Origin: Minisyncoccota bacterium
GTDB taxonomy: Bacteria; Patescibacteriota; Minisyncoccia; Phycocordibacterales; JABAAK01
Length of the DNA stretch: 64,000 nt
Reading direction: 5' to 3'
Assembly (NCBI GenBank): GCA_965216295.1
Contig: OZ244141.1
Coordinates: 161,819-225,818 of the forward strand
Under the pieces are notes generated by a model. The model did not search any database and was not told the origin of the DNA. It worked only from the letters and a program-made list of their open reading frames with translations. Made by a program: the position numbers and the translations under genes. Numbering within the stretch: the first letter of the stretch is position 1; each line of letters opens with the position of its first letter. Below are positions 7,824 to 57,680 of this stretch, in pieces.

Positions 7824-7990
7824 TGTTTGGTAAAACCTCCATATATAGATAAATGAAAAACAAAGGTGTGTCTGAGGAAAACCCTCACACACATACACCA
7901 TATATCATACAACAAAATATACAAATAGGCAATGTAGTTTTACACACTATGTATTAGAAATATGATAAGTCACGGATATACTACACTTGT

Positions 7991-10771
7991 ATGACCCTCG
8001 CGTCACTTCGTATTGTTCTTCCCTTTACCTTGCTCTGTATGCTCTTCATTCCTCTTGTGCAAGGACAAGAGATAGCGTCTTGTGAGGATGGAGAATTCTT
8101 GACTCTCAAAGAGACAGGGCTTGAGTGCTCAGTACTTCCTGATAGTGGAGGATCCTCACTTGCCACTCCTGATAAAAACTGTCCTGATGACCAATTGTTA
8201 AGTTATGGTGGTACTGGTTGGGTATGTATCAGTTTTCCTAATCCTCCTGCCCCTCCCACACTTTCTGATTTTGTGGATATTGGTAAAACTGTTGGTGGTG
8301 GTATTTGTAAGTCAGACGAGTTCCTTCAACTTGCTGTCGTTGAGAGTGAGTTGAAATTGCAGTGTGCTAAACCACCAGTTCGAAAATCAGGGATTCCAGA
8401 AGGCGGTAATGCAGGACAGGTGTTGACGAAATCAGCTGAACTTGAATCTGTTTGGGCAGATGTTGAAACACCAGATCCTATTTTCACTGGATATGATTTG
8501 TTTCACCTTCTTGAAGTTGAAAAAATATACACTGACCTTTCTTCATTCTCAGCAAGTGATGTATCTTTGGTAGATGGTAATACTAGAATAAATCTTAATG
8601 ACGCTAGAGAAGTCAATATAGACAATTGGTTAGTCGTGAAAGAAGCGGGTGAGAATAATGATGCGGCAGTGAAGCGGGGAAATGTAGCGAAAGTAATCAG
8701 TAGAGGCGGAGGGCGTGTCTATCAGAGTTATTTTGCGGACTTTGATGCCTACAACGGTGCATATGCATATGTTCGACGTGATGATTCTGCCATTGGTCAG
8801 TTAACAACACAAAGAGGAGTGGTTGTAACAGGAATTGAGTTTATGGGTAGTGTGCCAGATGAAAATGTTTTTATTCTTGATGTAAAACCAGGGTATATAC
8901 CATCAAATGTATCTATAATTCAAGTAATACTCTCAGCCCCTGGTGTTACCAGCCGATATTTTAATATGAATAGGTCTGGCAATCGTTTTAAAGAAAGCAT
9001 TGCAAGATTCGGTAAGGAATTTATTAAAAACAATAACGATAAGGACATTGCTATTGAAATAAGTTACAATTGTAATTGTATAGAAATAAGGGGAGATTTT
9101 TTGTCTCAAATAAAAAGTCAAGACAACGTTGCCCTAATAGAAATTGGTGCTGGAGTTGATGAGAATGTTGGAACAACGGAGGGCATCAACCACAGCCAAC
9201 TCTCTTTTCTTCCAGCTGAAAGAACATATACTAACTTCCCTTCATTTTCAAGCGTGTCTTCAACAAAAAATGGTAACACAAGAATATACACCACTGACAT
9301 CGCAGCATTTGATGTCAATGATTGGGTGGTGGTAAAGAAAACAGGTGAGAGCGGTGATTCAGCAATAAAGCGGAGAAACGTGACGAGAGTGGTTTATAAA
9401 GGAAAAACTACCCTTCAAAACTATTCTGCAAAATTTATTTTGAATGCTCTTGGGAATTACAGGTATTCACAAATCGAAAACCAAGGTGCGCTAAACAAGA
9501 ATGCAACGAGTGCAACGGAGTATGGAATATCAGAAGAAAGTGTTTTTTACCTTGGTATGTATAATGACCTTTTTGACATTCGATTAAACGGAGGTTCTGG
9601 TTACTTACCTGAAAGCGTAAAACTGCTTCATGTTATTCTTTCAACATCTTCTACCAATTTTGTAGAATTTGATGTGGCGTATGATAGCACCACAGAAAGT
9701 AGGCGCAGATTTATAGAAGCTGGCACACAGCTGGGCGATCAGTTTATTGAAGCAAACAACCAAGGACGTATTTTCGTTCAACTGTCATATGATTGTGTCT
9801 GTGTGGAACTAGAAGGAAACTATGCGTCTCAGATTAAAAATAAAAATAATGCTGCCTTTATAGAAACTAAAATTAGTAACAGTGCTTTAAAAAATCCCCT
9901 CCCAGGTGATGGTGTTGAAGGACAAGTACTGACAAAAACAGCAGAGAGTTTTGCTTGGGCAGGGGGTGGAGACTATGTTCCCAATGATGGTATTGAGGGA
10001 CAAGTACTGACAAAGACAGCAGATGGTTTTGCTTGGGCAGGAGCTGGTTTCACTGGTTACGACTTACTCTCCCTTATCCTGGTTGGAAAAAGATCTATTA
10101 GTTTCCCTTCATTTTCAACGAATGATGTATCTTTGACGGGTAGTAATACCAAAATAAATGTTGGTGATACGATAGAGTTTAACGAAGGTGACTGGGTGGT
10201 GATTAAACAATCAGGTGAGAGTAACGAGGAAGCAATGAAGCGAGGGAGTGTGACGAGGGTGAGGTTTGGTAATGTGAGAACTACCCTCCAAAACTATTCT
10301 GTTGATTTTGATTATGACAGTTGGTACGGTAGTTATACATATAATCGACATTCATTTTGGCATAGCGGCACATTAAATAAGGATGCAACAAGTGCAACAG
10401 AGTATGGAACAACAGACGCAGAGGTTGTATATATGGGTATTAGTGCTAACACCAATCCTTTCTTTACTTTTTGGACTAAACAGGGATATGTACCATCAGA
10501 CGTATCTAGTATTCATGTCACCCTCTCAACATCTTCCACCAACTCTGTGTCACTTATGATGACCAAGGGTCGTGATTATAAGGGATACAAAATTTTTGGA
10601 GATAGAACAAGCGGATTATCAGAATCGGTGGCTAAAGCGTTTATTAAAGCAAATGAGCGAAAACGTATCTTTGTTGAAATGACGTATATTTGTAGTGGTT
10701 GTGTAGAAATAGCAGGAGATTACACATCTGAAATACAAAACCAAAACAATGTCACTCTTATTAAGCAGTAA
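7991..10771 (+). CDS. Large secreted protein built from three ~280-aa repeat modules with 'GxxGQVLTKTA..W' motifs
   Basis: Signal peptide. N-terminal Cys-pair motif 'CEDGEFLTLKETGLEC'. Three GQVL motifs ('GNAGQVLTKSAELESVWA', 'GVEGQVLTKTAESFAWAG', 'GIEGQVLTKTADGFAWAG'). Three collinear modules each begin 'TGYDL...SFSxxDVSL' and end 'Y.C.C(I/V)E..G...S.I.N.NN...I'. No catalytic motifs seen. Confidence 0.6.
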   Translation: MTLASLRIVLPFTLLCMLFIPLVQGQEIASCEDGEFLTLKETGLECSVLPDSGGSSLATPDKNCPDDQLLSYGGTGWVCISFPNPPAPPTLSDFVDIGKTVGGGICKSDEFLQLAVVESELKLQCAKPPVRKSGIPEGGNAGQVLTKSAELESVWADVETPDPIFTGYDLFHLLEVEKIYTDLSSFSASDVSLVDGNTRINLNDAREVNIDNWLVVKEAGENNDAAVKRGNVAKVISRGGGRVYQSYFADFDAYNGAYAYVRRDDSAIGQLTTQRGVVVTGIEFMGSVPDENVFILDVKPGYIPSNVSIIQVILSAPGVTSRYFNMNRSGNRFKESIARFGKEFIKNNNDKDIAIEISYNCNCIEIRGDFLSQIKSQDNVALIEIGAGVDENVGTTEGINHSQLSFLPAERTYTNFPSFSSVSSTKNGNTRIYTTDIAAFDVNDWVVVKKTGESGDSAIKRRNVTRVVYKGKTTLQNYSAKFILNALGNYRYSQIENQGALNKNATSATEYGISEESVFYLGMYNDLFDIRLNGGSGYLPESVKLLHVILSTSSTNFVEFDVAYDSTTESRRRFIEAGTQLGDQFIEANNQGRIFVQLSYDCVCVELEGNYASQIKNKNNAAFIETKISNSALKNPLPGDGVEGQVLTKTAESFAWAGGGDYVPNDGIEGQVLTKTADGFAWAGAGFTGYDLLSLILVGKRSISFPSFSTNDVSLTGSNTKINVGDTIEFNEGDWVVIKQSGESNEEAMKRGSVTRVRFGNVRTTLQNYSVDFDYDSWYGSYTYNRHSFWHSGTLNKDATSATEYGTTDAEVVYMGISANTNPFFTFWTKQGYVPSDVSSIHVTLSTSSTNSVSLMMTKGRDYKGYKIFGDRTSGLSESVAKAFIKANERKRIFVEMTYICSGCVEIAGDYTSEIQNQNNVTLIKQ

Positions 10772-36904: not shown

Positions 36905-39900
36905 ATGGGGAACACCGAAAGGGACACACCACAAGAAGAGAAACAGACAAACCCAACCACACGACGAGAACTCGCAACGCTTGCCTTCTGGAAGAAAGAA
37001 AAACTGTTTGAAAAAAGCCAACGAGGGTTATCGCCAAAGGGTTGGTTTGCTACGGTACGAGAACGACTGTTTGGTAAACGTCGTTTTGTTTTTTATGACG
37101 GACCACCGTTTGCAACAGGACTTCCACACTATGGCCATCTTCTTGCCAGTGTTATCAAAGATGCCGTGCCACGGTATTGGACGATGCGTGGGTATCGTGT
37201 TGATCGACGATGGGGATGGGATTGTCACGGATTACCACTTGAAGTTGAAATTGAAAAGCGACTTGGGTTGCGCAACAAGAGAGAAATACAAGAGTACGGC
37301 ATTGATGCATTTAATGCACACGCTCGAGAAGCGATAGGGACGTATGAATCTGAGTGGAAGAAGGTGATTGCTCGGATAGGGCGTTGGGTGGATATGGAAA
37401 ATGACTACAAGACAGTGACGACTGATTACATTGAATCGGTATGGCACATCTTTCATACTCTACACACACGTGGCTGTGTCTACCAGGGGCGTAAGGTGTT
37501 GCACTTTTGTCCACGGTGCAGTACAACCCTTTCTAATAACGAGGTGGCTGACTGTTATCAGGACACAGACGACACGGCTGTCTATGTTACATTTCCACTA
37601 ACAGACGATCCTACAACACACTTTGTTGCATGGACCACGACTCCGTGGACACTCTTTGGCAACGCTGCACTGGTAGTTCATAAGGATCTTTCGTATGCCT
37701 ATGTGAAAAAAGGAGAAAACCGCTTTATCGTCCACGAGAAACAAGCACACGTAATTGCCAATGGTACTGTTGAGAAAGTTGTCTCAGGGGATACTTTGGT
37801 TGGTCTTTCATACACACCACTCTACAAAGGTGTTTACACTGGAGAAGAATCAGGCACTTGGAAAGTCTATCACGCACCATTTGTTGATGCTGAAACAGGG
37901 ACTGGTATTGTCCACATTGCTCCCGCATACGGTGAAGATGATCTTCAAGTAGCGCGGAAACACCATCTTCCTGTGACGCATCACATTGATGAAAACGGAC
38001 AGTTTATGGATTCAGTGCAGGAGCTTGTTGGGCAGTCTCCAAAAAGTAAAGGAAGGGATGAAGAGGTGACACAAAAGATTATTACCGTTTTAAATCGTCA
38101 TGGACGGATATTGAAAGAAGAGGTTATGCAACACAGCTATCCGTTCTGTTGGCGATGTGACACACCATTGCTTCACTACGCGACCACCTCCTGGTTTATC
38201 GATGTTCCCAAGTATCGAAACGCCATGGTCGCTGCAAACAAGAATATTCGTTGGGTACCAAGTCACATACGAGACGGTCGTTTTGGTAACTGGGTTGCCA
38301 ATGCAAAAGAGTGGGCTGTCTCTCGTCCACGTTTTTGGGGTGCCCCAATTCCTGCATGGAAAAGTGCATCTGGCAAACACCTCATTATCGATTCTTTAGA
38401 AACCATGATGAACCACATGCGTTCAAAGAATACCTATATTTTTGTCAGACATGGGGAGTGTCAAGGAAACGAGGAAGGGTATTACAACTGTCTTCCAAAC
38501 GAAAAAAACATACTCACCAAACGAGGAAGAAGGCAGGCCTTTGTCGCTGGGCAGAAACTAAAAGCACACAATCCAACGATGATTATCGCTTCTCCTGCAA
38601 CGAGAACACGGCAGACAGCAGCGATTATACAAGAGACATTAGAAGTACCGGTACGAGAAGACCCTGCTGTGTGTGAAATACAAGCACCGTTTTTTGATGG
38701 CAAGTCGATAACAAAATTTGTTACCACAATGCGAGAGCGGGTGAAACAAGATGGTATCGAAGGAGCACCTTCGGGTGGTGAGTCATATGTAGCAGTGTAT
38801 TGTCGTGTTGAAAAGTTTTTACGCACCCTTGAACAAACACACACAGGAGAGACCATTGTTATCGTGACACACAAGTCATGTGTGACAGCAGCAAAGATGA
38901 TAGCTGCTGGTCGCTATCCGAATACATCATTCTATCTTTCTAGTGAGTCTCGTAAACCTCTGTGGCGTATTCCAAACTGTGAGGTTGCTCAGATTCCATA
39001 CCGTCTCGTCCATCGCGATGCAGACGGCGCCGTTGATCTTCACCGTCCCTTTATTGATACGGTAGTACTCTATGACAGTGATGGTGAATCGTATCACCAT
39101 GTCGGTTCGGTGTTTGATTGTTGGTTTGAGTCAGGTTCAATGCCATATGCATCAAACCACTATCCATTTGCCTTGCGAGAGACAAAGAGTGTGTTTAATC
39201 CAAAGACAAAAACAGGATTCCCTGCAGACTTTATCGCTGAAGGGTTAGATCAGACACGCGGATGGTTTTATAATCTTCTTGCTATTGGTGTTGGTGCCTT
39301 TGATGTTGCTCCGTATAAAAATGTTGTTGTCTTTGGTCTTATTCGCGCTGCCGATGGAAAAAAGATGAGTAAACGGCTCAAAAACTATACCGACCCAAAC
39401 CTACTTATCGATCGCTATGGAGCAGATGCGCTCCGCCACTACTTCCTTGCTTCACCAGTTGTTCGTGGTGAAGATATTGATTTCAAAGACGACAGTGTTG
39501 CTGAAATTCATCGTAAGGTATATCTTCGGCTTGATAACTGTCTTCATTTCTATACCACCTACAGCACCCTTCCACACCAAAGAAGAACTGAAGGTACATC
39601 ACAGAGTACCCATCTTTTGGATAGATTTATCCTTTCACGAGTTGCTGACATGCATCGACAGGTGAGTCGTGGTTTTTCAAACTATGAACTTGATGGAGCA
39701 ACTAGTGCCATCGCTCCATTCATTGAAGATCTCTCTGCGTGGTATCTTCGTCGTTCCCGTGATCGTCTTCGTTCAGAGACAGCTGATGGTGTAGCTGCTC
39801 GTGAAACACTTTGGAGAACACTCTTTATCACTGCAAAAACGATTGCACCAATTGCACCGCTGTATGCTGAACACCTTTACCAGGCACTTGGTGTCAAAGG

Positions 39901-40435
39901 CGGTCCAGACAGTGTCCATCTCTGTCACTGGGAAGAGGAGATGCCCATTGATCGGGGTGTTATTGAAAAGACGGAAACTATTCGTTCGATTGTTTCAAAA
40001 GCACACGAACAACGTTCATCAGCGGGCATTAAAGTACGGCAACCGCTTGCTCTTTTGGAGGTTCCTACAACACTGCGCCTCGATTCTGATACCAAAACAC
40101 TTCTACAAGATGAGGTGAATGTGAAGGAAGTGCGACACGGAAAACAGACTGCACTTGATATCACGATAACGCAAGCACTGCAGAGTGAGGGATTTGCACG
40201 GGAGTTTATTCGTAAAGTACAAGATCTTCGAAAAGAGTTAGCGTACAAACCGCTTGATCACATTGCGACACTCACCATCGCAGGACCGTCTGTGGTGATA
40301 GAGCAGCTGCGACAACACGAGACACTCATTGCAACCATAACAAGAGCAAAAGGCATATCGTATGCACCAACTGCCAAACACACCTTCTCTCTTAATGATC
40401 TTCTCGTCAGTGTTTCGCTTGAGCAAGGGAGGTAG
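36905..40435 (+). CDS. ileS: Isoleucine--tRNA ligase with an inserted histidine-phosphatase (PGAM-like) domain (~residues 495-680) in place of the zinc-knuckle segment
   Basis: HIGH 'PHYGHLLASV' and KMSKS 'KMSKRLKNY', with a CP1 editing region. 'RFWGAPIPAW' and 'DLHRPFID...DCWFESGS' are separated by a ~200-aa block carrying 'IFVRHGECQGN' (RHG catalytic motif) and 'VIVTHKSCV', the second His of the histidine phosphatase superfamily. Total 1176 aa. Confidence 0.85.
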   Translation: MGNTERDTPQEEKQTNPTTRRELATLAFWKKEKLFEKSQRGLSPKGWFATVRERLFGKRRFVFYDGPPFATGLPHYGHLLASVIKDAVPRYWTMRGYRVDRRWGWDCHGLPLEVEIEKRLGLRNKREIQEYGIDAFNAHAREAIGTYESEWKKVIARIGRWVDMENDYKTVTTDYIESVWHIFHTLHTRGCVYQGRKVLHFCPRCSTTLSNNEVADCYQDTDDTAVYVTFPLTDDPTTHFVAWTTTPWTLFGNAALVVHKDLSYAYVKKGENRFIVHEKQAHVIANGTVEKVVSGDTLVGLSYTPLYKGVYTGEESGTWKVYHAPFVDAETGTGIVHIAPAYGEDDLQVARKHHLPVTHHIDENGQFMDSVQELVGQSPKSKGRDEEVTQKIITVLNRHGRILKEEVMQHSYPFCWRCDTPLLHYATTSWFIDVPKYRNAMVAANKNIRWVPSHIRDGRFGNWVANAKEWAVSRPRFWGAPIPAWKSASGKHLIIDSLETMMNHMRSKNTYIFVRHGECQGNEEGYYNCLPNEKNILTKRGRRQAFVAGQKLKAHNPTMIIASPATRTRQTAAIIQETLEVPVREDPAVCEIQAPFFDGKSITKFVTTMRERVKQDGIEGAPSGGESYVAVYCRVEKFLRTLEQTHTGETIVIVTHKSCVTAAKMIAAGRYPNTSFYLSSESRKPLWRIPNCEVAQIPYRLVHRDADGAVDLHRPFIDTVVLYDSDGESYHHVGSVFDCWFESGSMPYASNHYPFALRETKSVFNPKTKTGFPADFIAEGLDQTRGWFYNLLAIGVGAFDVAPYKNVVVFGLIRAADGKKMSKRLKNYTDPNLLIDRYGADALRHYFLASPVVRGEDIDFKDDSVAEIHRKVYLRLDNCLHFYTTYSTLPHQRRTEGTSQSTHLLDRFILSRVADMHRQVSRGFSNYELDGATSAIAPFIEDLSAWYLRRSRDRLRSETADGVAARETLWRTLFITAKTIAPIAPLYAEHLYQALGVKGGPDSVHLCHWEEEMPIDRGVIEKTETIRSIVSKAHEQRSSAGIKVRQPLALLEVPTTLRLDSDTKTLLQDEVNVKEVRHGKQTALDITITQALQSEGFAREFIRKVQDLRKELAYKPLDHIATLTIAGPSVVIEQLRQHETLIATITRAKGISYAPTAKHTFSLNDLLVSVSLEQGR

Positions 40436-40444
40436 TGTCTACAT

Positions 40445-41044
40445 ATGGGAAACGGCTACAGTATCGTGACAACGAAAGCGTTCGTTTTGAAAACCAAACC
40501 AATCGGTGAGGCAGATCGACTTGTTGTTCTTTTCTCTCAAAAGCTCGGTAAAATTACTATCTATGCCAAGAGTGTTCGGCTTGGCAAGAGCAAACTCAAA
40601 CCATTTGCCTATCCATACCGTTACGGTATCTTTGACATCATCGTTGGTAAAAAGTACATTCTCAAAGATGCTCGGTGCCTTGATTGTTTTGATGAGATAT
40701 GGCGCAATCAGAATCGTTACGGTATCTTTGTTTCTCTCCTCCGTAATGTTGATATGTTCATTGAAGGAGTAGAGGTAAACACAAACATTTTTGATAGTAT
40801 TGAAAAAACTACCACCTATCTGCAACAGCAACCTGTCTCCCAACTTGCCGCACAGCACACACCGATTGTTACTGTGTTTCAATTTTTGGTACTTCAAGAA
40901 CTCGGTTGTGTTGATTGGGGAAATAGCATAGGGATGTCTTTTTTGCAATTGGTAACTGAGGTAGCGACACGAACAGCAACTGGCAGGTACCTTGAAGAAC
41001 AGGTGAATGCTTATCTACTAACACAACACGTTGGAGGACGGTAG
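40445..41044 (+). CDS. recO: DNA repair protein RecO
   Basis: N-terminal OB-fold 'AFVLKTKPIGEADRLVVLFSQKLGKITIYAKSVRLGKSKL'. Confidence 0.75.
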   Translation: MGNGYSIVTTKAFVLKTKPIGEADRLVVLFSQKLGKITIYAKSVRLGKSKLKPFAYPYRYGIFDIIVGKKYILKDARCLDCFDEIWRNQNRYGIFVSLLRNVDMFIEGVEVNTNIFDSIEKTTTYLQQQPVSQLAAQHTPIVTVFQFLVLQELGCVDWGNSIGMSFLQLVTEVATRTATGRYLEEQVNAYLLTQHVGGR

Positions 41045-41070
41045 AAAAAGGACAACCATATCTTTACATA

Positions 41071-41099
41071 TTGTGTTTTTGGTGTTGTTGTGTTATCAT
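41071..41099 (+). promoter_or_regulatory. Putative sigma70-type promoter (TTGTGT-N17-TATCAT) heading a ~350-nt non-coding unit that ends at the 41427-41455 terminator
   Basis: Hexamers and spacing read from the sequence. No convincing ORF follows; only TTG-start or two-codon ORFs. Confidence 0.35.
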
Positions 41100-41426
41100 T
41101 TATTGGAGGGTTAGTGGTGAATGTTGTGATTGAATCTGTGTGTCATTTTTTATGGTTCGGATGTAATAGTTCGAAAGGGGTGTAATGACACCTTGTATTT
41201 GTTTGCGAATGAAAAGGGACGAAGTTTTTTCTTTATTGAGATTTTCTTGGTTACCTTTCTTAGTGAGCAATGGATGATGTGGAGCAGTTTTTTCTCTTTT
41301 CCTACCCGGCATGGTTTGAGAGTTCTGTGGGAATGATTTTGTATCCATTAGATTTAGATTTAAATGAGACTTTGCCAGAGTCTTTAGCTTTAGCGAACCC
41401 CACACTGTTCGCCTGACCCCTCTTTG

Positions 41427-41455
41427 GTGGCACGATTCGCGTCGTGCCACTTTTT
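41427..41455 (+). terminator. Rho-independent terminator (GTGGCACGA-TTCGCG-TCGTGCCAC-TTTTT)
   Basis: Perfect 9-bp stem plus a U-tract. Confidence 0.65.
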
Positions 41456-41541
41456 ATTCTCGTGAGTTTCAACAAAAAAGACCAAATTATATAGTATATA
41501 TACAGATTTTATATGTACTTCTCTGTTTTCTATATGGTTAG

Positions 41542-41570
41542 TTGACAAGTTAGATGTAGTATGGTAGTAT
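41542..41570 (+). promoter_or_regulatory. Near-consensus sigma70 promoter P1 (TTGACA-N17-TAGTAT)
   Basis: Exact -35 consensus with a 17-nt spacer, repeated identically in P2, P4 and P5. Confidence 0.6.
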
Positions 41571-41576
41571 ATACAC

Positions 41577-41870
41577 AGTTGCTAAACAGATGCTTATAGC
41601 ATATTGATTTGGTAACAGTACAGAATATATAGATTACCGGGTGGAATAGAGGGGTAGTTAAGAAATGTATTAAAACACAATAATATAAAATTGACGTGCA
41701 AGAAATTGTGTAGTCAAGAGTTTGTATTGAGAGATGGTTACTGCTGTGGTGGCGTAGTTATTTTTAGGTTTTGATATATAGAATTTTTCATAGTTGAAAT
41801 ATTCGGCTACCCTTTTAGCCCCATTAAACGAAGGAATCCAAAAGGACAGCACACAATGCTGTCCTTTTTT
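41577..41870 (+). ncRNA. Putative structured sRNA, unit 1 (~295 nt), family A
   Basis: Promoter P1 to terminator T1 with no ORF over 8 codons. Conserved 5' 60 nt are shared with units 2 and 4. 'GGGTAG...CTACCC' long-range complementarity covaries with unit 2. Confidence 0.4.
41840..41870 (+). terminator. Terminator T1 (AAAAGGACAGCA-CACAA-TGCTGTCC-TTTTTT)
   Basis: Perfect 8-bp stem plus a U6 tract. The upstream A-tract makes it bidirectional. Confidence 0.7.
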
Positions 41871-41973
41871 CATGCAGTGGTGAGAAGTATTTGTGAGATC
41901 TAACCATATGTAATACACCACATTCCAGAATATACAAGGATTTTCAACACATTGCTATCCTCCTAAGAGGGGG

Positions 41974-42002
41974 GTTGACAAGTTAGATGTAGTATGGTAG
42001 TA
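41974..42002 (+). promoter_or_regulatory. Promoter P2 (TTGACA-N17-TAGTAT), preceded by the palindromic box CCTCCTAAGAGGGG
   Basis: Identical to P1. Confidence 0.6.
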
Positions 42003-42008
42003 TATACA

Positions 42009-42301
42009 CAGTTGCTAAACAGATGCTTATAGCATATTGATTTGGTAACAGTACAGAATATATAGATTGCCGGGTAGAAAAAGAAGGGTAGTTAGGAGGT
42101 ATATTAAAACACAACAGCAAATATTGACGTGCAAAAATAGAGTGCGGTCAAGAGTTATGTTGAGAGATGATTACGGCTGTGGCGGCGGTAGTTATTTTTA
42201 GGTTTTGATATATAGAGTTTTTCATAAGAGAGACTCACTACCCTTTGGGCCCCATTAAACGAAGGAATCCAAAAGGACAGCACACAATGCTGTCCTTTTT
42301 T
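42009..42301 (+). ncRNA. Putative structured sRNA, unit 2 (~293 nt), family A
   Basis: About 85% identical to unit 1, with the same promoter and terminator. Confidence 0.4.
42271..42301 (+). terminator. Terminator T2 (same hairpin as T1)
   Basis: Identical stem-loop and U-tract. Confidence 0.7.
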
Positions 42302-42404
42302 CATGCAGTGGTGAGAAGTATTTGTGAGATCTAACCATATGTAATACACCACATTCCAGAATATACAAGGATTTTCAACACATTGCTATCTTCCTAGGAG
42401 GGGG

Positions 42405-42433
42405 TTGACAAGCTACACGTAATATGGCAAACT
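42405..42433 (+). promoter_or_regulatory. Degenerate promoter P3: TTGACA retained, -10 mutated to CAAACT
   Basis: Same position in the cassette as the other promoters, but the -10 hexamer is lost. Confidence 0.3.
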
Positions 42434-42439
42434 ATACAC

Positions 42440-42665
42440 AGTTACTGATACTGATATCGTAACAACTCAAACAGTAAGTTTGAGCTTCACTGAGAGATGG
42501 GTACGAGGGGCAGTGCGTAACGCTGTCCCTCTTCCCTCTTTGATTAAAAAAACGTTGAGACATAAGATTTAGTGTTTGGTATTGATTGCACATACACGAT
42601 CTCAATTATCCTTCCACTTTTAGTGAAGGAATCCAAAAGGACAGCACACAATGCTGTCCTTTTTT
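42440..42665 (+). ncRNA. Putative sRNA, unit 3 (~225 nt), family B. Its 3' half is shared with unit 4. Possibly weakly expressed or a pseudo-unit
   Basis: Shares 'TTAAAAAAACGTTGAGA.ATAAG.TTTTAGTGTTTGGT.TTGATTG...TCCTTCCACTTTTAGTGAAGGAAT' with unit 4. The terminator T3 is intact. Confidence 0.3.
42635..42665 (+). terminator. Terminator T3 (same hairpin as T1)
   Basis: Identical stem-loop. Confidence 0.7.
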
Positions 42666-42769
42666 CATGCAGTGGTGAGAAGTATTTGTGAGATCTAACC
42701 ATATGTAATACACCACATTTCAGAATATACAAGGATTTTCAACACATTGCTATCTTCCTAGGAGGGGGG

Positions 42770-42798
42770 TTGACAAGTTAGATGTAGTATGGTAGTAT
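42770..42798 (+). promoter_or_regulatory. Promoter P4 (TTGACA-N17-TAGTAT), preceded by CTTCCTAGGAGGGGGG
   Basis: Identical hexamers and spacing. Confidence 0.6.
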
Positions 42799-42804
42799 AT
42801 ACAC

Positions 42805-43207
42805 AGTTGCTAAACAGATGCTTATAGCATATTGATTTGGTATACGTAGAATTACAAAAGAATGTCGGGTGGGATAAGGATGATTGAAAAAATATATTGA
42901 AACGAGGGCAAATTGACAGACATGCAGTGATAAAAAGCAGGACGTAATAGTTCGAAATATGTGTAGTGCAAATTACATAGTATGGTAGCGTAAATTACAG
43001 GAAGCAGTCGAATTTGTTTTAAGATAATGGCAATTGTCTTATTAACTATATTAAAAAAACGTTGAGATATAAGGTTTTAGTGTTTGGTGTTGATTGATAT
43101 CTTGCCACACAATTGGTGAGTATTGATTGCACATACACAGGCCTCAATCGTCCTTCCACTTTTAGTGAAGGAATTCAAAAAGACAGCATACAGTGCTGTC
43201 TTTTTTT
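42805..43207 (+). ncRNA. Putative structured sRNA, unit 4 (~400 nt). Its 5' end matches family A and its 3' end matches family B
   Basis: A chimeric arrangement of the conserved blocks. The terminator carries a compensatory stem change. Confidence 0.4.
43177..43207 (+). terminator. Terminator T4, a variant hairpin AGACAGCA-TACAG-TGCTGTCT-TTTTTTT
   Basis: Relative to T1-T3, G->A on the 5' arm is matched by C->T on the 3' arm. That compensatory pair preserves the stem. Confidence 0.7.
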
Positions 43208-43295
43208 CATGCAGTGGTGAGAAATGTTTGTGAGATCTAACCATATGTAATACACCACATTCCAGAATATGCAAGGATTTTCAACACATTGCTAC

Positions 43296-43311
43296 CCTCC
43301 TAGGAGGGGGG
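43296..43311 (+). promoter_or_regulatory. Perfect 14-bp palindrome CCCTCCTAGGAGGG abutting the -35 of P5; imperfect copies sit ahead of P2 and P4. Candidate operator
   Basis: Dyad symmetry read directly. Conserved position immediately 5' of TTGACA. Confidence 0.35.
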
Positions 43312-43340
43312 TTGACAAGTTAGATGTAGTATGGTAGTAT
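43312..43340 (+). promoter_or_regulatory. Promoter P5 (TTGACA-N17-TAGTAT)
   Basis: Identical to P1. Confidence 0.6.
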
Positions 43341-43346
43341 ATACAC

Positions 43347-43694
43347 AGTTGCTGAATTGATTGTAATGTTGCGTTTCATTCATATTGTTCTGAGGCGGTT
43401 GAGGTATAATATGGAGAGAGACGAGAAAACAACATTCTCATTTGGCATAACGTGCGGTAGCGTGGACAGCGCGTAAAAGAAGGGCAGAGTGTCTACATAC
43501 GATCAGAGCTATAGAAGAGTGGGCTTCTTCTATAATGCGTAAAACTGTGTACAGAGTAACGAGTCGGTTGGACGTTACTTTGAAGTGTGTGGTAAAAGAT
43601 AATATAGAGATTTAAAAGATCCTCTATCCTATCAAACTCTGCCTTGCTCAAAGGCAAAAATAATTATAAGGACAGCATATATGCTGTCCTTTTT
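43347..43694 (+). ncRNA. Putative sRNA, unit 5 (~350 nt), with a divergent body. It ends 56 nt before the 43751 CDS, so it could alternatively be a long regulatory leader
   Basis: Promoter P5 to terminator T5, with no ORF. The gene at 43751 has no recognisable promoter of its own in the 56-nt gap. Confidence 0.35.
43667..43694 (+). terminator. Terminator T5 (AAGGACAGCATAT-ATGCTGTCC-TTTTTT)
   Basis: Palindromic 9-10-bp stem plus a U6 tract. Confidence 0.65.
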
Positions 43695-43750
43695 TCATGC
43701 AGTGAGAAACACCCTCGGAGTCTTATTATGTTTGGTACACTGTCACAGGT

Positions 43751-45625
43751 ATGCGATTGCGAGATGTAGATAGAAACTTGAACTACGACAAGTCAAAAAA
43801 AGTTGCTCAACAGAAGAGGCGATTAAGTCCGCGCAAGACAGCAATTTCTACTTCATGGCATAGGACACAAGAAAAAACACCAGGTTCAAAATTGTTGGGA
43901 CTCATACTTCTTTTAGCAGTCACTTTTTTTTCCATAGCCGTTGTTGTTGCCATTTTTATACAAATTGCTGGTTTGGATAAATCTATTTCACCATCAAAGA
44001 TAAATATCATCGTTCAGGGACCAATCACTGCAGTCAGTGATGAGGACATACCATTGATAATACGAGTGGTCAATCGTAACTCGGTTACTCTGGAGGTGCC
44101 AAAATTAATTGTTGATTATCCAGACGGCACATATACCAGTACTAGCAAATCAAACCCTTTGCGAACACAAGAAATTCCACTTGATGATATTGAGAGTAAT
44201 GGGTTTGTTGAACATCTATTCAATCAGCGATTTTTTGGAGAAGAGGGTGAAGAAAAAAACCTCAAGTTGACACTAGAGTATCGTGTTCCAGGATCATATT
44301 CTGTCTATCGTTCAGAAACAACAGTACACACCATCGCATTGCGAGGTGACACTGTTTCAATTACCAAACCATCCCTTACTCGTGCCGTCTCTGGCAAAGA
44401 GTTGAAGATTTCCTTTAGTGTGACATCTCGAGTGAGTTTCACACTCCCTTCTGTCGTTGTTCGTGTACGGTACCCCGCTGGTTTCGTACCATTGCAAGAG
44501 TCAACAGATGCGGTGAAGACGGCGTGGACCTTTACTGACTTCCCCGGAGGTGCGACTAAAAATATACAAGTTACAGGAATTATTCGTGGTGAGCCAGGTG
44601 TGCGACAAACGTTTGTCGCTGAAGTATTTGCATCCCCAGCTATCAAGGATGTGAATGCCGTTCGTGTTGCCAAGCAAAGTGAAGAGATTCTCATTGAAAA
44701 ATCATTTCTTCGTGCAACAGTTCTTCTAGATGATTCTGAAAATGATACAATTGTCGTTTCACCCAAAGATACTGTTTCGGGCACAATACGGTGGCAAAAC
44801 GAAGAGACAACAGCGCTAAAAAACGTCACCTTGGTGGCAACAATAACAGGAACGGGATTGGATGAAAGTAGCGTTACAGTGATAAATGGCCATTATGATA
44901 TTAATAACAGTCAGATAGTGTGGGATCAAACGAAGTACAAAGAGTTTTTAAGCATCAATCCTAACCAATTTGGCGAACTATCATTTTCTTTCAAAATACT
45001 TCCCTCACGGATAGAGTTTGCGTCGGAGAATAAATACGTTACTGTATCAATCTCTGCGATGGCTAACAGGGTAGGTTATGATTTTGTTGATAGCATTAGT
45101 GATATAGAGGAGAAGACGGTGAGGGTACGAAGTGCCGTTCAGATAAGTAGTACGACTCTCCATGAAACAAGTCGTGTAGCAAATGCAGGTTCTCTACCAC
45201 CACGGGTTGGTCAAGAGACAACATATGTTCTGCATTATTTCATCAAGAACGACGGTAATATACTCAGCGATGCAGTGCTCACCATACCGCTTTCCAATCA
45301 CGTTACTTTCACTGGTGTGGTAGATGGTGTGAGTACAAAAAACTTTCAATACAACACAGACAAACACACCATTACTATTACGATTCCTCAGATAGATGCC
45401 TTCGGCACGAATGCGAGTAGTTCTGTTGAAGTACAAGTGAGTCTCATACCAAAGAGTACTGATGTTGGTCATGAAGTTCCTTTGGTAGGGAAGGCAACAT
45501 TCATTGCACAAGATGAGTTTGTTAACAGAAAGTATCAAGGCACATTCTCAGAACTTACCACCCGTCTGACAACCGAATCAAATAATAGAGAAACCCGTTT
45601 GGTTCAAGAAGCAGAAGGGGGATAA
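43751..45625 (+). CDS. Membrane-anchored (single N-terminal TM) large extracytoplasmic protein, function unknown
   Basis: Basic cytoplasmic N-tail, TM 'LLGLILLLAVTFFSIAVVVAIFI', then ~550 aa of beta-rich sequence with no recognisable catalytic motif. Confidence 0.5.
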   Translation: MRLRDVDRNLNYDKSKKVAQQKRRLSPRKTAISTSWHRTQEKTPGSKLLGLILLLAVTFFSIAVVVAIFIQIAGLDKSISPSKINIIVQGPITAVSDEDIPLIIRVVNRNSVTLEVPKLIVDYPDGTYTSTSKSNPLRTQEIPLDDIESNGFVEHLFNQRFFGEEGEEKNLKLTLEYRVPGSYSVYRSETTVHTIALRGDTVSITKPSLTRAVSGKELKISFSVTSRVSFTLPSVVVRVRYPAGFVPLQESTDAVKTAWTFTDFPGGATKNIQVTGIIRGEPGVRQTFVAEVFASPAIKDVNAVRVAKQSEEILIEKSFLRATVLLDDSENDTIVVSPKDTVSGTIRWQNEETTALKNVTLVATITGTGLDESSVTVINGHYDINNSQIVWDQTKYKEFLSINPNQFGELSFSFKILPSRIEFASENKYVTVSISAMANRVGYDFVDSISDIEEKTVRVRSAVQISSTTLHETSRVANAGSLPPRVGQETTYVLHYFIKNDGNILSDAVLTIPLSNHVTFTGVVDGVSTKNFQYNTDKHTITITIPQIDAFGTNASSSVEVQVSLIPKSTDVGHEVPLVGKATFIAQDEFVNRKYQGTFSELTTRLTTESNNRETRLVQEAEGG

Positions 45626-54110: not shown

Positions 54111-57100
54111 ATGAATATTGTTGCAAATAAAACAATAGCAGTGTTTGTTTCAGCAGCATTTGTGTTTACTGCGTATTTTGTGTACACGCCATTGGCGAAC
54201 GCACAAAGTTCACAGGATGAAACTATTGCAAAACTTCTCGCACAAATCGAGGCATTGACCAAACAGGTCAGCGCCTTGAGTAGTAACAGTGGTGGTAGCA
54301 GTATAACAACAACCACAAATAATGCTTGTTCATATGCATGGACAAAAAACTTAGCTATAGGAAGTTCTGGTGAAGACGTTCTCCGGTTACAACGCTTCCT
54401 CAATGGCGACTCTGCGACTACTGTGGCAACCTCGGGAGCTGGATCAGTGGGTAGTGAAACCCGCTACTACGGTCCTGCAACCGCAAATGCGGTTTCCCGT
54501 TTCCAGGAAAAGTATGCTAGTGCTATTCTCTCGCCACTTGGCTTGACGAAAGGTACTGGTAATTTCTCTGTATCTACGCGCGGAGAGGCAAATCGTCTCT
54601 GTGGCAGTGGTGGAGGTACTAATACTGGAGGTTCCACAATTCCTGTTGTTGGTGGTGATTTGAATGTATCGGATGCTCGACAACCGGCTAATGGTTACGC
54701 TGTTGCAGGTGCACAGCGTGTTCCATTCACTTCATTTACTCTTACCGCGGGGAGTAATGATGTACGAGTAAGTGGTATTGAAGTTCGTCAGGTTGGTCTT
54801 TCCAAACGAGACGACTTTGATTCAGTTGCTCTTGTTGATGGTAATGGAGTACAACTTGGTAGCTCACGGTCGCTGAACTCAGATAAAGAGGCAACCGTTG
54901 GAGGTAGATTTACCGTTCCACGCGGTCAATCAGTTACTTTGACAGTTGTTGGTGATATTGGTGATGAAGCATCATCTGGTATCGCTCAGCTACAAGTAAC
55001 CAGTGTGGAGGCAAACGGACAGGTTTCTGGTCGTTTCCCTATTAAAGGTGCGTTACACGCTTTCTCAGATGCTGTAACACTTAGTAAAGTAGACGTAATT
55101 TCTGGTGGTTCTGGTAATGATAACTTGGAATTGAATTCATTGGAAGACCTTGCTAAGTTTGAATTGCAAATTGGTTCAACAGGTAATGAGGATGCATACC
55201 TCAAATCAATTACTTTTGAACAAGCAGGTTCTATTGACGCAGATGATTTTGATAACGATTTAGAACTCGTTGTTGATAACAGAGATTCATATCGTCTACG
55301 TTCAGGAAACGATGATCGTTACACGGTTGTCTTTTCTGGTAGAGGGTACAAAATTGAAGAGGGCGATAGGGTTGATTTGACCATTGAAGGTTCAGTGGTT
55401 GATGGTACATCTCGTACTGTTGAATTCACTCTTGATGACCCATCAGATGTCTATGTTGTTGGTGCTGATTTCGGATATGGTTTACCAGTAAGGTTTGGTG
55501 GTGATGATGATGGTGATAGTATCGTAAGTTATAAGTGGAATGTGACTGGTGGTAATGGTGACATTAATAGGGGTACTGCTTTGAACTCAAGTGACTTTAA
55601 TGTCACCTATGGAGATAATCGTCTCATTGGTGCATTTGATGTTGAAATTGAGGGTGAAGCGGTCGAATTTGAAGATCCAGAATTCAGCGTTACTATCTCT
55701 GGTGCCGCAGGCAAAATTTCTCAAAAGATATTGGATGCTCTTGATGGTGATGGTGATGATGAGTTGAGTATTGACAGACCATATCTTGAGATAGATGGTC
55801 GAAAGTACGCAGACGCAGAAGACTTTGTTTTCAAGACTAGCGACATCAGTGGTACTGCTGCTACTGGAGTTGTTGCGACGAAAACATTAAAGTTCTCTAA
55901 CAACTTTGATCTCTCTGAAAAAAGAGATGAAGAGGAGTACACTTGGATTGTGAAAGGTGATCTTGATACCGATTGGCCTGATGGCACAAAGGTAACATTG
56001 AAGCTTGTCAGATTTAAGAGTGCAGAGGGAGTAGTTTCAGGTGATAGTTACACAGCAGATGGTAAGGCATTTGCACAAAATGGTGATTTCATCATTGAAT
56101 CAGATGACGTTACTATCGAAGGTAACCTTGTAAAATTCTCACTTACTGGTCGTACTGTTGATGAAACACAGTATGTTGCTGATGTTGAGGGTGTCCCATT
56201 CGCTACCGTTGAGATTGACGCAGGTGATTCAAGTGAAGATGTTTCGGTGAGTCAGTTAGAGGTAACATTGGAAGCAACAGGCACAAACCTTGAGGAATTG
56301 AGAAGGTGTGATTTGTTGAATGATAAGGATGATAAGAGATCATCAGTATTGAGCAGGCGAGAAACTCCGAAAGGCGATGATCCTGGTACAACAAAACTCT
56401 CCTTTAACTTCGATAGGGGGTATGAAGTACGTGCTGGAGATACTGATCAATTAACCCTTGTGTGTGACATTAAAAGAAATGCTACGAACGCAGGTCGGTA
56501 TCAATTCAAATTCTTAACCACCAACAATGTGCGGTACGAAATTGGTCGAGATAGCTTTAATGTTGCAGTAGTAGAGAGAGATGACCTTGGTGAAACTATA
56601 ACAATTAGTGATCAAGCTACTTTGAATGTTCGTACTATTGCAGAACAGGGGTCAGAAGGAAGTCGAATTGTTGTTGCAACAGGTAACGAAGGCCAAGATG
56701 AAATTTTGGTTGGTGAAATTGAATTTGAAGCAGAACAGTCTGATGTGACTCTTAACAAGATTGTCCTAACAGGTGTGTTGACGAATACTGCATCAGGTAC
56801 TTTAAATAGTGCTGTGATAGAGTCAATACAACTTAAGCATGGTGGTGTAATGAAAGAAATAGCTAACGAAGTTGAGTTAGATAATGCGGGCAGGATTGAA
56901 TTTGAGAGCTTAGACTTTGATTTTGAGAGTGGTCGTAAAGAACGGGTTGAAGTATATGTTTCAGTTAATGGTATTAACGGTGATTCATCATCTAAAACTG
57001 GTATTTCAGGTGCTCAGTTTGATCTTAAGGTAATTGAAACTAGTTACCAAGCTAAAGCGGGTGTTACTACTGAACAAACACAATCGTACCAAGCAACAGA

Positions 57101-57680
57101 TGGTAATCTTAATAACTTGAATGGAATACTTACCTATCGTGCAACACCGACAGTTTCTTCAAGAACAGTCAAACAAACCGGTAGTGGTACGAACACTAAA
57201 CTCTACGAGTTTAGAGTAGGTAATGATTCAGAAGAGGGAGTATACTTCGGTAAAGCTGTGCTTGATGTAACACTTTCTGGAGCAACAATATCAAACGTTA
57301 CTCTCTATGCTGGTGATTCTAATGACAGTGAAAGTCAATTAGCAAGTGTATCTGGTAGTGTTTCTGGTGGGGAAGTGATTTTAACACTAGATGATGTACA
57401 GCGAATTGATAGTGGTGGTTCAACACTCTTCTCTGTATACGGTACCTTGAATGACGGAAGTGGTGATAGTGATAAGGTAACAGTAGGTTTGAGAAGCGGT
57501 GGTACCCCTGCTGCTGCTGCTGCGCTATCAGGAGTTGTTACGACTAATAACGGTTTCGTTTGGTCACCAAACTCTGCTAATAACTTCGGTGGGCCTGCCG
57601 CGACGGTTGTTGATTGGTTCACGGGTGCAAGTATTATTAGAGGAAGTGGAATCAACAACTGGACTACTGATACTGACTAG
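54111..57680 (+). CDS. Very large secreted surface protein (1189 aa) with an N-terminal peptidoglycan-binding-like domain and long beta-sandwich repeat regions
   Basis: Signal peptide, a coiled segment, a PG_binding_1-like block 'GSSGEDVLRLQRFLNG...YGPATANAVSRFQEKY', then ~1000 aa of Gly/Asp/Val/Thr-rich repeats. A terminator hairpin follows at 57730. Confidence 0.6.
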   Translation: MNIVANKTIAVFVSAAFVFTAYFVYTPLANAQSSQDETIAKLLAQIEALTKQVSALSSNSGGSSITTTTNNACSYAWTKNLAIGSSGEDVLRLQRFLNGDSATTVATSGAGSVGSETRYYGPATANAVSRFQEKYASAILSPLGLTKGTGNFSVSTRGEANRLCGSGGGTNTGGSTIPVVGGDLNVSDARQPANGYAVAGAQRVPFTSFTLTAGSNDVRVSGIEVRQVGLSKRDDFDSVALVDGNGVQLGSSRSLNSDKEATVGGRFTVPRGQSVTLTVVGDIGDEASSGIAQLQVTSVEANGQVSGRFPIKGALHAFSDAVTLSKVDVISGGSGNDNLELNSLEDLAKFELQIGSTGNEDAYLKSITFEQAGSIDADDFDNDLELVVDNRDSYRLRSGNDDRYTVVFSGRGYKIEEGDRVDLTIEGSVVDGTSRTVEFTLDDPSDVYVVGADFGYGLPVRFGGDDDGDSIVSYKWNVTGGNGDINRGTALNSSDFNVTYGDNRLIGAFDVEIEGEAVEFEDPEFSVTISGAAGKISQKILDALDGDGDDELSIDRPYLEIDGRKYADAEDFVFKTSDISGTAATGVVATKTLKFSNNFDLSEKRDEEEYTWIVKGDLDTDWPDGTKVTLKLVRFKSAEGVVSGDSYTADGKAFAQNGDFIIESDDVTIEGNLVKFSLTGRTVDETQYVADVEGVPFATVEIDAGDSSEDVSVSQLEVTLEATGTNLEELRRCDLLNDKDDKRSSVLSRRETPKGDDPGTTKLSFNFDRGYEVRAGDTDQLTLVCDIKRNATNAGRYQFKFLTTNNVRYEIGRDSFNVAVVERDDLGETITISDQATLNVRTIAEQGSEGSRIVVATGNEGQDEILVGEIEFEAEQSDVTLNKIVLTGVLTNTASGTLNSAVIESIQLKHGGVMKEIANEVELDNAGRIEFESLDFDFESGRKERVEVYVSVNGINGDSSSKTGISGAQFDLKVIETSYQAKAGVTTEQTQSYQATDGNLNNLNGILTYRATPTVSSRTVKQTGSGTNTKLYEFRVGNDSEEGVYFGKAVLDVTLSGATISNVTLYAGDSNDSESQLASVSGSVSGGEVILTLDDVQRIDSGGSTLFSVYGTLNDGSGDSDKVTVGLRSGGTPAAAAALSGVVTTNNGFVWSPNSANNFGGPAATVVDWFTGASIIRGSGINNWTTDTD

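Follow-up and report, generated by a model that had tools for sequence, protein, structure and literature searches.

The window analysed here is a 64-kb stretch from the genome of a Minisyncoccota bacterium (contig OZ244141.1), with a G–C content of 43%. It is densely coding under genetic code 11, and about 90% of it is covered by stop-to-stop open reading frames (ORFs) of at least 150 aa. Between recO (40445–41044), which forms the left border, and a gene for a 624-aa surface protein (43751..45625, + strand) lies a tract of 2.7 kb (41050–43750), in which the original prediction, made from the letters of the window, had found no credible ORF, while noting a very high coding density elsewhere. 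Both statements held up, as the ORFs of the tract are short, differ in frame from unit to unit, and have no relatives in Pfam or in the databases. With a probability that we put at about 60%, the tract represents a tandem array of six independently transcribed genes for structured non-coding RNAs (ncRNAs), designated C0 and U1–U5, all on the + strand and belonging to one Paceibacteria species.

Promoter scanning of the 64 kb revealed exactly four copies of TTGACA-N17-TAGTAT that have an extended -10 TG, where 0.07 would be expected by chance. All four lie within the array, on the + strand, at 41542, 41975, 42770 and 43312, and, as had been predicted, they precede U1, U2, U4 and U5, respectively. 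The promoter of U1 (41542..41570) would give rise to an RNA of ~294 nt (41577..41871; family A1) comprising a 5' hairpin, a closed multi-helix core, and a 12-bp terminator followed by U6, whereas that of U2 (41975..42003) precedes an RNA of ~292 nt (42010..42302; family A2). The start region of U4 (42754..42798) consists of an imperfect palindrome (42754–42765), a G run and the promoter (42770–42798), followed by a predicted RNA of ~403 nt (42805..43208). That of U5 (43295..43340) has a perfect palindrome, CCCTCCTAGGAGGG (43295–43308), a G run and the promoter (43312–43340), followed by an RNA of ~349 nt (43347..43696) that is of a separate type. The region in front of the U3 RNA (42440..42666, ~226 nt, family B) is arranged alike (42390..42433), with an imperfect palindrome CTTCCTAGGAGG (42390–42401), a G run and a promoter (42405–42433) that reads TTGACA-N17-CAAACT. 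The -10 box of this unit had been called dead, but positions 2 (A) and 6 (T) and the TG upstream of it are retained, and its degenerate form (CAACCT in the strains) is conserved in two further contigs, L001 and L002 (ENA sample ERZ25071281), which carry the same locus and encode an identical RecO. The sixth unit, C0, has a putative promoter read from the sequence (41071..41099, TTGTGT-N17-TATCAT, TG at 41091–41092), which the consensus scan did not call, its -35 box matching at 3 of 6 positions; this is the weakest part of the model. The promoter assignments are matches to a consensus and no measure of activity, and the -10 box of U3 and the -35 box of C0 are weaker ones. The C0 RNA (41106..41457, ~350 nt) is taken as a diverged member of the array on account of its fold, its terminator and a module shared with another unit.

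As predicted, the five units U1–U5 end in a conserved stem-loop terminator, GGACAGCA-loop-TGCTGTCC followed by T6, the ends lying at approximately 41870, 42301, 42665, 43207 (U4) and 43695 on the + strand. The U4 terminator differs by a G–C to A–T double change that preserves the stem (an A–U pair in the RNA). Across the three strains, the stem is retained in 13 out of 13 terminator copies, three of them with the double change and one with a single mismatch, and the terminator 8-mer is absent from the rest of the window. C0 ends in a terminator of its own (41426–41457, + strand), GGTGGCACGA-TTCG-CGTCGTGCCACT with 11 pairs, followed by T5.

The units are separated by spacers of ~105 nt that are nearly identical to each other. 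The first of these (41872..41974) carries an imperfect palindrome, CCTCCTAAGAGG (41959–41970), and a run of six G. A diverged copy of the spacer, devoid of the palindrome, was identified upstream of U1 (41476..41541) by blastn and alignment, the blastn alignments that run from 41476 into U1 having 66–75% identity to stretches beginning at the spacers at 42343 and 42707. Within the window, the CCTCCTAGGAGG-like palindrome is confined to the array and is centred ~10 bp upstream of the -35 box. A perfect palindrome of 12–14 bp had been reported for several copies; this applies to the 14-bp copy ahead of U5, while those ahead of U2–U4 have one or two mismatches and U1 has none, so the shared regulator that had been suggested on this basis was overstated. 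The G run between the palindrome and the -35 box (41969–41974, 42400–42404, 42764–42769, 43306–43311, and the equivalents in L001 and L002) ranges from 5 to 8 G among units and strains, with GGGGAG in the second unit of L001. This variation could be phase-variable promoter spacing, or it could be homopolymer error in contigs of 5–8x coverage.

Repeat analysis revealed a 265-nt block present four times (3' block, terminator, spacer, promoter and 5' block) and a terminator block present five times; blocks of 265 and 106 nt are shared among the five units at 61–100% identity. The unit periods are 433, 430, ~365 and 542 nt, and thus the uniform length of ~430 bp given earlier does not hold. Alignment and self-blast confirmed the assignment of U1 and U2 to family A, of U3 to family B, and of U4 to an A/B chimera. 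U4 is a mosaic with an A-like 5' part, a ~200-nt core of its own that includes the module shared with C0, and a B-like 3' part, which is matched by the B-type covariance model at 42965–43206 (83.7 bits). U5 constitutes a fourth type, which has in common with the other units just the first ~15 nt and the terminator stem. C0, on the other hand, had been regarded as unrelated to the array, but 29 nt of it (41159–41187) are 83% identical to U4 (42940–42968), it is complementary to part of U2, and it precedes the diverged spacer copy.

The complementarity between C0 (41295–41311, UCUUUUCCUACCCGGCA) and U2 (42068–42084, UGCCGGGUAGAAAAAGA) extends to 16 of 17 positions. Both stretches are unchanged in L001, and ~0.01–0.02 such matches would be expected in the tract by chance; they could be a site of RNA–RNA pairing or a remnant of an inverted duplication. 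Nothing else stood out when pairing among the units was compared, since the whole-length RNAduplex z-scores were mostly around 0 (lowest, -2.3) and uninformative.

No coding capacity was found in the tract. Reading TGA, TAG or TAA as sense yielded no long conserved ORF, and ARAGORN detected neither a tRNA nor a tmRNA. The spurious ORFs that gene callers place in the array were used as queries for the protein-database search, in which no relatives were found among 5.8 billion proteins and the matches were limited to the strain contigs L001 and L002. In C0, the ORFs of 48 aa, 68/73 aa and 116 aa are disrupted by 1- and 2-nt indels in L001 and have no Pfam or database relative. One of these changes, a 2-nt deletion, shortens a hairpin loop (AGACU-UUGCCAG-AGUCU to AGACU-UUACC-AGUCU) and breaks the 48-aa ORF. 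It is nevertheless worth considering that the units are repeated small-protein modules similar to type I toxin–antitoxin (TA) loci such as ldr/rdl and aapA/isoA, each structured mRNA encoding a tiny peptide. Their layout is similar, with tandem units of ~400–500 bp and a folded RNA of 200–400 nt (PMC2887945), and hydrophobic ORFs do occur: one of 13 aa in U2 (MITAVAAVVIFRF), and one of 35 aa on the - strand of U1 and U2. Yet no ORF is common to the unit types, the frames shifting between U1 and U2 (the 13-aa ORF of U2 becomes 7 aa in U1 through a 1-nt indel), and no ORF of at least 20 aa, with both strands listed, is shared across them. By sequence reading, no Shine–Dalgarno-like sequence stands at a usable spacing before the U2 or the - strand ORFs. 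The - strand promoter-like sites are limited to 42919–42891 in U4 and one within the U5 terminator, neither of which is conserved among the units, and the ORFs have no Pfam or database relatives. We regard the small-protein explanation as highly improbable.

In contrast to their coding potential, the predicted transcripts have a pronounced potential for folding. For the intervals between the predicted start, ~7 nt downstream of the -10 box, and the U tract, the minimum free energy and the z-score relative to dinucleotide shuffles are -87.1 kcal/mol and -6.1 for U1, -97.5 kcal/mol and -7.7 for U2, -80.4 kcal/mol and -7.1 for U3, -106.1 kcal/mol and -4.1 for U4, -108.3 kcal/mol and -4.8 for U5, and -102.2 kcal/mol and -3.1 for C0. 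A sliding scan of 36–49 kb with 300-nt segments on both strands showed the excess to be strand-specific: the segment 42000–42299 reaches -98.5 kcal/mol (z, -9.9) on the + strand vs -58.4 kcal/mol (z, -1.9) on the - strand. On the - strand, z-scores of -3.5 to -4.9 are attained just in segments across the near-palindromic terminators, and 35 flanking coding segments per strand have z-scores between -3 and +2. When treated as single-stranded DNA, the region made up of the spacer and the U3 promoter (42302–42445) is less structured than its shuffles on either strand (z, +1.3 and +1.9). As the spacer and promoter are unfolded and the units strongly folded, the excess structure begins and ends at the predicted transcript borders. 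The skew of G over C is up to +0.46 in the transcribed parts, and 14 of the 97 consensus pairs of family A are G·U pairs; these two properties explain the strand asymmetry and argue against palindromes at the DNA level. The RNAs are predicted to have a common plan, in which a hairpin at the 5' end is followed by a multi-helix core that long-range helices close, and then by the terminator; ~63–73% of their nucleotides are paired in the single-sequence minimum-energy folds, and no long open seed region is apparent.

These results also bear on whether the tract is a DNA-level element (integron-like cassettes, or iterons of an origin or partition site) or consists of remnants of repeated protein genes. 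Conserved repeats of ~105–265 nt do alternate with variable segments of 170–330 nt, as in chromosomal integron arrays, and a 7-nt RYYYAAC / GTTRRRY pair is discernible in the spacer and promoter. However, 42302–42445 is unfolded as single-stranded DNA on both strands, the folding of the units is RNA-like and strand-specific, and Pfam scans of the neighbouring genes turned up neither an integrase nor a recombinase; integron attC sites and CALIN arrays were rejected on these grounds. A replication origin or terminus was also rejected, there being no GC-skew turn at the array. As for decayed genes, a genome carrying this DNA as an intact ORF was sought and none was found. The sole outside match is one of 28 nt, over which the B-type 3' block (TTAGTGAAGGAATCCAAAAGGACAGCA) agrees exactly with the antisense strand of trpF in two JGI contigs (L086 4480–4507, L087 655–682; AVLLDSFTK on the - strand), and the two matches of the 3'-block pattern in the JGI metagenomes are both to this same trpF gene. 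The similarity ends after 9 residues, with nothing else in any frame, and the match was judged coincidental. Of the explanations considered here, a DNA element or decayed genes would be the least probable.

No known RNA family was recognised in the array, in line with the original prediction. When the whole window was searched with the 4227 covariance models of Rfam 15, which include those for tmRNA, SRP, RNase P, 6S, T-box, riboswitches, OLE, ROOL, GOLLD, raiA, HEARO and group I/II introns, no match was obtained at the gathering thresholds. At E-values of up to 10, four matches were found in 40900–43900, with 17–24 bits vs thresholds of 43–128, and these were mostly to terminator hairpins. 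Homologs in other Patescibacteria, which had been thought worth seeking, were not found: nhmmer with all units had no match in 83 Paceibacterota loci (1.45 Mb) or in the rest of the window, and the array units were the sole matches of the B-type covariance model over 0.8 Mb. A pattern of the promoter plus transcription start had no matches in the JGI metagenomes and IMG/VR, and blastn ("distant") against phages and plasmids detected nothing. Full-text literature searches yielded no description of a regulatory or structural RNA or small RNA (sRNA) gene family in Patescibacteria, also known as the Candidate Phyla Radiation (CPR).

Relatives with surface-protein orthologs of 35–38% identity have the same gene order (IleRS, recO, surface protein, AI-2E transporter). 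At the recO/surface-gene junctions of three of them (L083 6166–9918, L084 9335–9907, L085 5191–5691), there is no array and no unit-like promoter; the two genes are separated by ~80–95 nt or, in L083, by a 1014-aa gene. Since the junctions of these syntenic relatives are free of the array, it is a recent, lineage-specific acquisition. These relatives have recO on the opposite strand, and the 1014-aa gene of L083, which is of unknown function, occupies the position of the array. The orientation of recO and the additional gene in L083 point to the junction as a recurrent site of rearrangement and insertion.

Comparison of the strains revealed that the array varies within the species. Four units are present in L001 (A2-type, B with an additional hairpin, U4-type, U5-type), while L002, whose contig ends after the last of them, has five or more (A1, A2, B, B', U4-like). 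With A1, A2, B, U4 and U5 in the window, the three independent contigs (window, L001 and L002) thus have five, four and at least five units, and the types follow one another in the same order, A1 being present in the window and L002 and absent from L001. Because the order is the same and the counts differ, the unit types and their order predate the split of the strains, with copy number changing. Alleles differ mostly by the gain or loss of whole hairpins or hairpin tips, together with stem extensions: the strain copies of U3 have whole-hairpin insertions and a stem extension, while U5 and its L001 allele retain the stems and differ in hairpin tips and one whole hairpin. The G over C skew, the G·U pairs, and the indels that fall in hairpin loops or take away whole hairpins are consistent with selection at the RNA level.

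The variability extends into the downstream gene. The 624-aa protein has no Pfam match above threshold; judging from its translation, it is anchored by a single transmembrane helix, with a short N-terminal side in the cytoplasm and most of the protein outside the cell, and its distant homologs carry DUF11 repeats (PF01345). Its identity between strains is 79% (vs L001 12867–14750). From ~43208 to 45600, the window and L001 are 76–88% identical, vs 99–100% in the flanks, and the diverged tract ends sharply near the stop codon of the 624-aa gene, identity being restored at ~45580. The synonymous divergence (dS) is 0.62 in the surface gene vs 0.02–0.03 in IleRS and MetRS, and the ratio of nonsynonymous to synonymous divergence (dN/dS) is 0.20; given these values, the allele is a deeply diverged one that was either imported or maintained by balancing selection, rather than a product of hypermutation. 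To the left, the divergence between the window and L001 falls from U4 through U3 toward U2, and because it grades in this way from the gene into the array, the two are inherited as one variable block.

Such an arrangement raises the question of whether U5, or the whole array, acts in cis on the surface-protein gene as a leader, an attenuator or a phase-variable switch. The end of U5 is 55 nt upstream of the ATG, the array and gene form one hypervariable, co-inherited island, and the G run between palindrome and -35 box ranges from 5 to 8. However, the G-run differences may be homopolymer errors of the low-coverage contigs, and every unit including U5 ends in a terminator of 10–13 bp with U6, for which no antiterminator pairing is predicted. 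A separate promoter-like site, GTGAGA-N16-TATTAT (43702–43729), lies between U5 and the gene, and the orthologs in the relatives have ~80–95 nt upstream and no such leader. C0 and U1–U4 each precede the promoter of the next unit, and U5 alone precedes a gene, so a leader or riboswitch was rejected for the array. Control in cis is therefore considered very unlikely, and the surface-protein gene itself is probably outside the RNA system.

Several observations weigh against the interpretation of the tract as functional ncRNA genes, the first of them concerning covariation. RNAalifold consensus structures contain 2 compensatory and 10 wobble-compatible changes in family A, and 2 compensatory and 3 wobble-compatible changes in the pair of U5 alleles, but shuffles reach the observed covariation scores in 34 and 123 of 500 trials, respectively, which is not significant. 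When the structure was predicted from one sequence alone and scored on the other, one-sided changes kept the pair in 57 cases and broke it in 49, no better than chance, while double changes retained it in 9 of 11; substitutions are rarer at paired (6.7%) than at unpaired (9.6%) positions. The covarying helix proposed for U1 and U2 (GGGTAG/CTACCC vs GGGTAGT/ACTACCC) turned out to be a one-sided change from U·G to U–A. The structural alignment with the strain copies is therefore compatible with the folds and gives them no statistical support; with 2–4 effective sequences per type, too few for the test to have power, non-significant covariation neither supports nor contradicts them. Selection for folding at the RNA level is suggested by thermodynamics and strand asymmetry, and by these two alone, because no homolog beyond one species was found.

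Other points on this side are that the RNAs are known here from sequence signals and predicted folds, that the array was found in a single species, and that the promoters of U3 and C0 are weak. No loop motif recurs across the units (GUAA-type loops occur in C0, U3 and U4 alone), and Pfam scans of the neighbours detected no gene for an RNA-binding protein adjoining the array. No complementarity to possible targets that was judged to exceed chance was found in the other 61 kb of the window. There are 40 exact matches of at least 12 nt, direct or complementary, between the array and the rest of the window, where ~19 would be expected under uniform base composition; the longest are of 15 nt and none lies at a start site, the search having covered 64 kb of what is a genome of 0.5 Mb or more. 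Finally, the untranscribed spacer is conserved as strongly as the RNA ends, and the conservation of the ends is thus attributable to homogenisation of the DNA and uninformative on RNA function.

Some of these points would fit a functionless amplification, in which a promoter–terminator module multiplied in tandem at a hot spot of recombination and persists as neutral or selfish DNA, any transcripts having no role. This would accord with the presence of the array in one species and its absence from syntenic relatives, the strain-variable copy number, the variable recO/surface-gene junction (with its 1014-aa gene in L083), the spacer conserved like the RNA ends, and the failure to find a partner or target. 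It would not lead one to expect + strand folding with z-scores of -4 to -10 that is limited to the promoter–terminator intervals, a G·U-dependent asymmetry of the strands (-98.5 vs -58.4 kcal/mol), indels that fall in loops and whole hairpins, or types A, B, U4 and U5 keeping their order across strains. Genomes of Patescibacteria are of ~0.5–0.8 Mb, and dispensable DNA is shed from them. Across 1.5 Mb of related loci, long tracts devoid of ORFs are seldom seen, as would be expected if junk is deleted. Amplification without function deserves to be kept in mind, although we consider it unlikely.

The array of structured ncRNA genes is therefore the interpretation that we prefer. Of the earlier proposal of an array of expressed structured RNAs, the non-coding nature, the layout as transcription units and the strong folding of the + strand were borne out, while the covariation, the regulator and the unrelated sixth unit were not. 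Growth of the array may have proceeded by tandem duplication, with unequal crossing-over and gene conversion homogenising the unit ends, that is, the 3' block, terminator, untranscribed spacer, promoter and 5' hairpin. The cores would meanwhile diverge via gain and loss of hairpins and exchange of modules, U4 being such a chimera. Tentatively, the RNAs might act in trans as "sibling" RNAs (PMC4211561), in which the common ends (5' and terminator hairpins) would serve stabilisation and the differing cores would each address a different partner. As ~63–73% of the nucleotides are paired and no open seed stands out, a protein-bound role (ribonucleoprotein, scaffold or sequestering) seems somewhat likelier than seed-pairing with mRNA, though with low confidence. 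A dimeric DNA-binding protein at the CCTCCTAGGAGG-like palindrome might co-regulate U2–U5, which is suggested with similar caution.

A further-reaching possibility, which we consider decidedly unlikely, is that these are modular RNAs with shared end "handles" (the 5' hairpin, and the 3' block with the terminator) and exchangeable, fast-diverging cores, which form a strain-specific island with the deeply diverged surface-protein allele for interaction with hosts or phages, the RNAs being specificity adaptors or decoys for a protein, or exported. If true, the island of modular RNAs and surface protein, in a CPR cell living as an episymbiont, would represent an RNA-based specificity system of a new class. 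Irrespective of this, the array would make up ~0.5% of a genome of the 0.5–0.8-Mb type, has the best promoter matches of the 64-kb window, contains RNAs that are predicted to fold as well as classical structured RNAs, and is part of a strain-variable island adjoining a fast-diverging surface protein. For uncultured symbionts, it is thus a tangible candidate for an RNA function specific to one lineage, and it illustrates how an sRNA family may be born and diversify through tandem duplication, end homogenisation and module exchange at the level of hairpins, the reach of this being limited to one species.

With regard to the genomic setting, the tract is surrounded by housekeeping genes. Pfam scanning identified ArgRS, IleRS and RecO upstream of the tract, and, beyond the 624-aa protein, an AI-2E-type transporter, MetRS, ribosomal protein S6 and SSB downstream of it; EF-G, FtsK and L10/L12 are encoded at a greater distance in the window. 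Among GTDB species representatives, the closest matches of IleRS are in metagenome-assembled genomes of Paceibacterota/Parcubacteria and have merely 50% identity, which indicates that the host belongs to a poorly sampled CPR lineage. IleRS (36905–40435) has a His_Phos_1 histidine-phosphatase domain inserted at residues 512–667 (E-value, 4.6e-29). The same architecture is present in the orthologs of L001, L002, L083, L084 and L085, and, from these sequences, the insertion looks like a conserved feature of IleRS in this Paceibacteria clade. In some distant Patescibacteria loci, ORF-free tracts of 600–740 nt were observed in or near the IleRS gene (L073 607–2601, clearly within IleRS; L067 2080–2762, 9517–10120 and 14237–14846), which suggests an alternative code (UGA as sense) or introns in those lineages. 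Three large proteins of the window, of 1189, 831 and 926 aa (54111–57680, 5406–7901 and 7991–10771), have no significant Pfam domain and are probably further lineage-specific envelope or surface proteins.

Among known systems, arrays of short repeats are readily set apart. CRISPR and TIGR arrays have repeats of ~20–50 nt (TIGR-Tas is described in PMC12045711), whereas the repeats of the array are of 265 nt and include a promoter and a terminator, and no Cas or Tas (Nop-domain) protein was found among the proteins scanned. Type III TA systems (ToxIN-like) have repeats of ~30–50 nt immediately ahead of a gene for an endoribonuclease toxin; with periods of ~365–542 nt and a downstream gene whose membrane-anchored product has no nuclease domain, the array was not assigned to them. 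Closest in layout are the type I TA repeats (E. coli ldr/rdl and ibs/sib, H. pylori aapA/isoA; PMC2887945), and tandem intergenic repeats have indeed served to find type I TA systems (PMC2887945). They have in common with the array tandem units of ~400–500 bp, a strong promoter, a stable fold with long-range closing helices, a terminator and a strain-variable copy number. Unlike them, the array has no conserved small hydrophobic ORF and no conserved antisense promoter, and no ribosome-binding site was seen ahead of the candidate ORFs.

CsrB/CsrC and RsmX/Y/Z are likewise multiple diverged paralogs with many hairpins and strong promoters (a duplication of csrB is described in PMC6262261), and their upstream palindromic activator site (GacA box) has a counterpart in the palindrome of the array; in contrast to them, the array has no repeated GGA-like loop motif, and no csrA-like gene was found among the neighbours examined. 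With the large structured RNAs it shares a length of several hundred nt, multiple helices, a sometimes multi-copy occurrence or location in variable regions, and a function that was unknown upon discovery. These large classes of bacterial ncRNA, OLE, ROOL, GOLLD, raiA and HEARO, are all in Rfam. They span many genera and show covariation, whereas the family described here was found in one species, has no significant covariation and matches no model.

The best counterpart is provided by sibling sRNAs, examples of which are LhrC1-4 of Listeria, NgncR_162/163 of Neisseria, AbcR1/2 of Brucella, OmrA/B of E. coli and PrrF1/2 of Pseudomonas. Tandem sibling sRNA genes have been reviewed (PMC4211561), and the array resembles them in consisting of adjacent paralogous non-coding genes, each with its own promoter and Rho-independent terminator, in its likely origin by local duplication, and in probable co-regulation. 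Here, five paralogous units share sequence blocks, and a promoter and a terminator were identified at each copy by consensus matches. The RNAs of the array are of 225–404 nt vs ~80–150 nt, that is, 2–4 times longer, and are about two-thirds paired; there are six copies with mosaic exchange of modules, in a CPR bacterium as the host. In siblings it is normally the seed that is common and the remainder that differs, whereas the RNAs of the array share their ends and differ in the cores. The locus is best seen as a larger, mosaic form of tandem sibling RNA genes, which involves no new principle and is a good candidate for a new family of ncRNAs.

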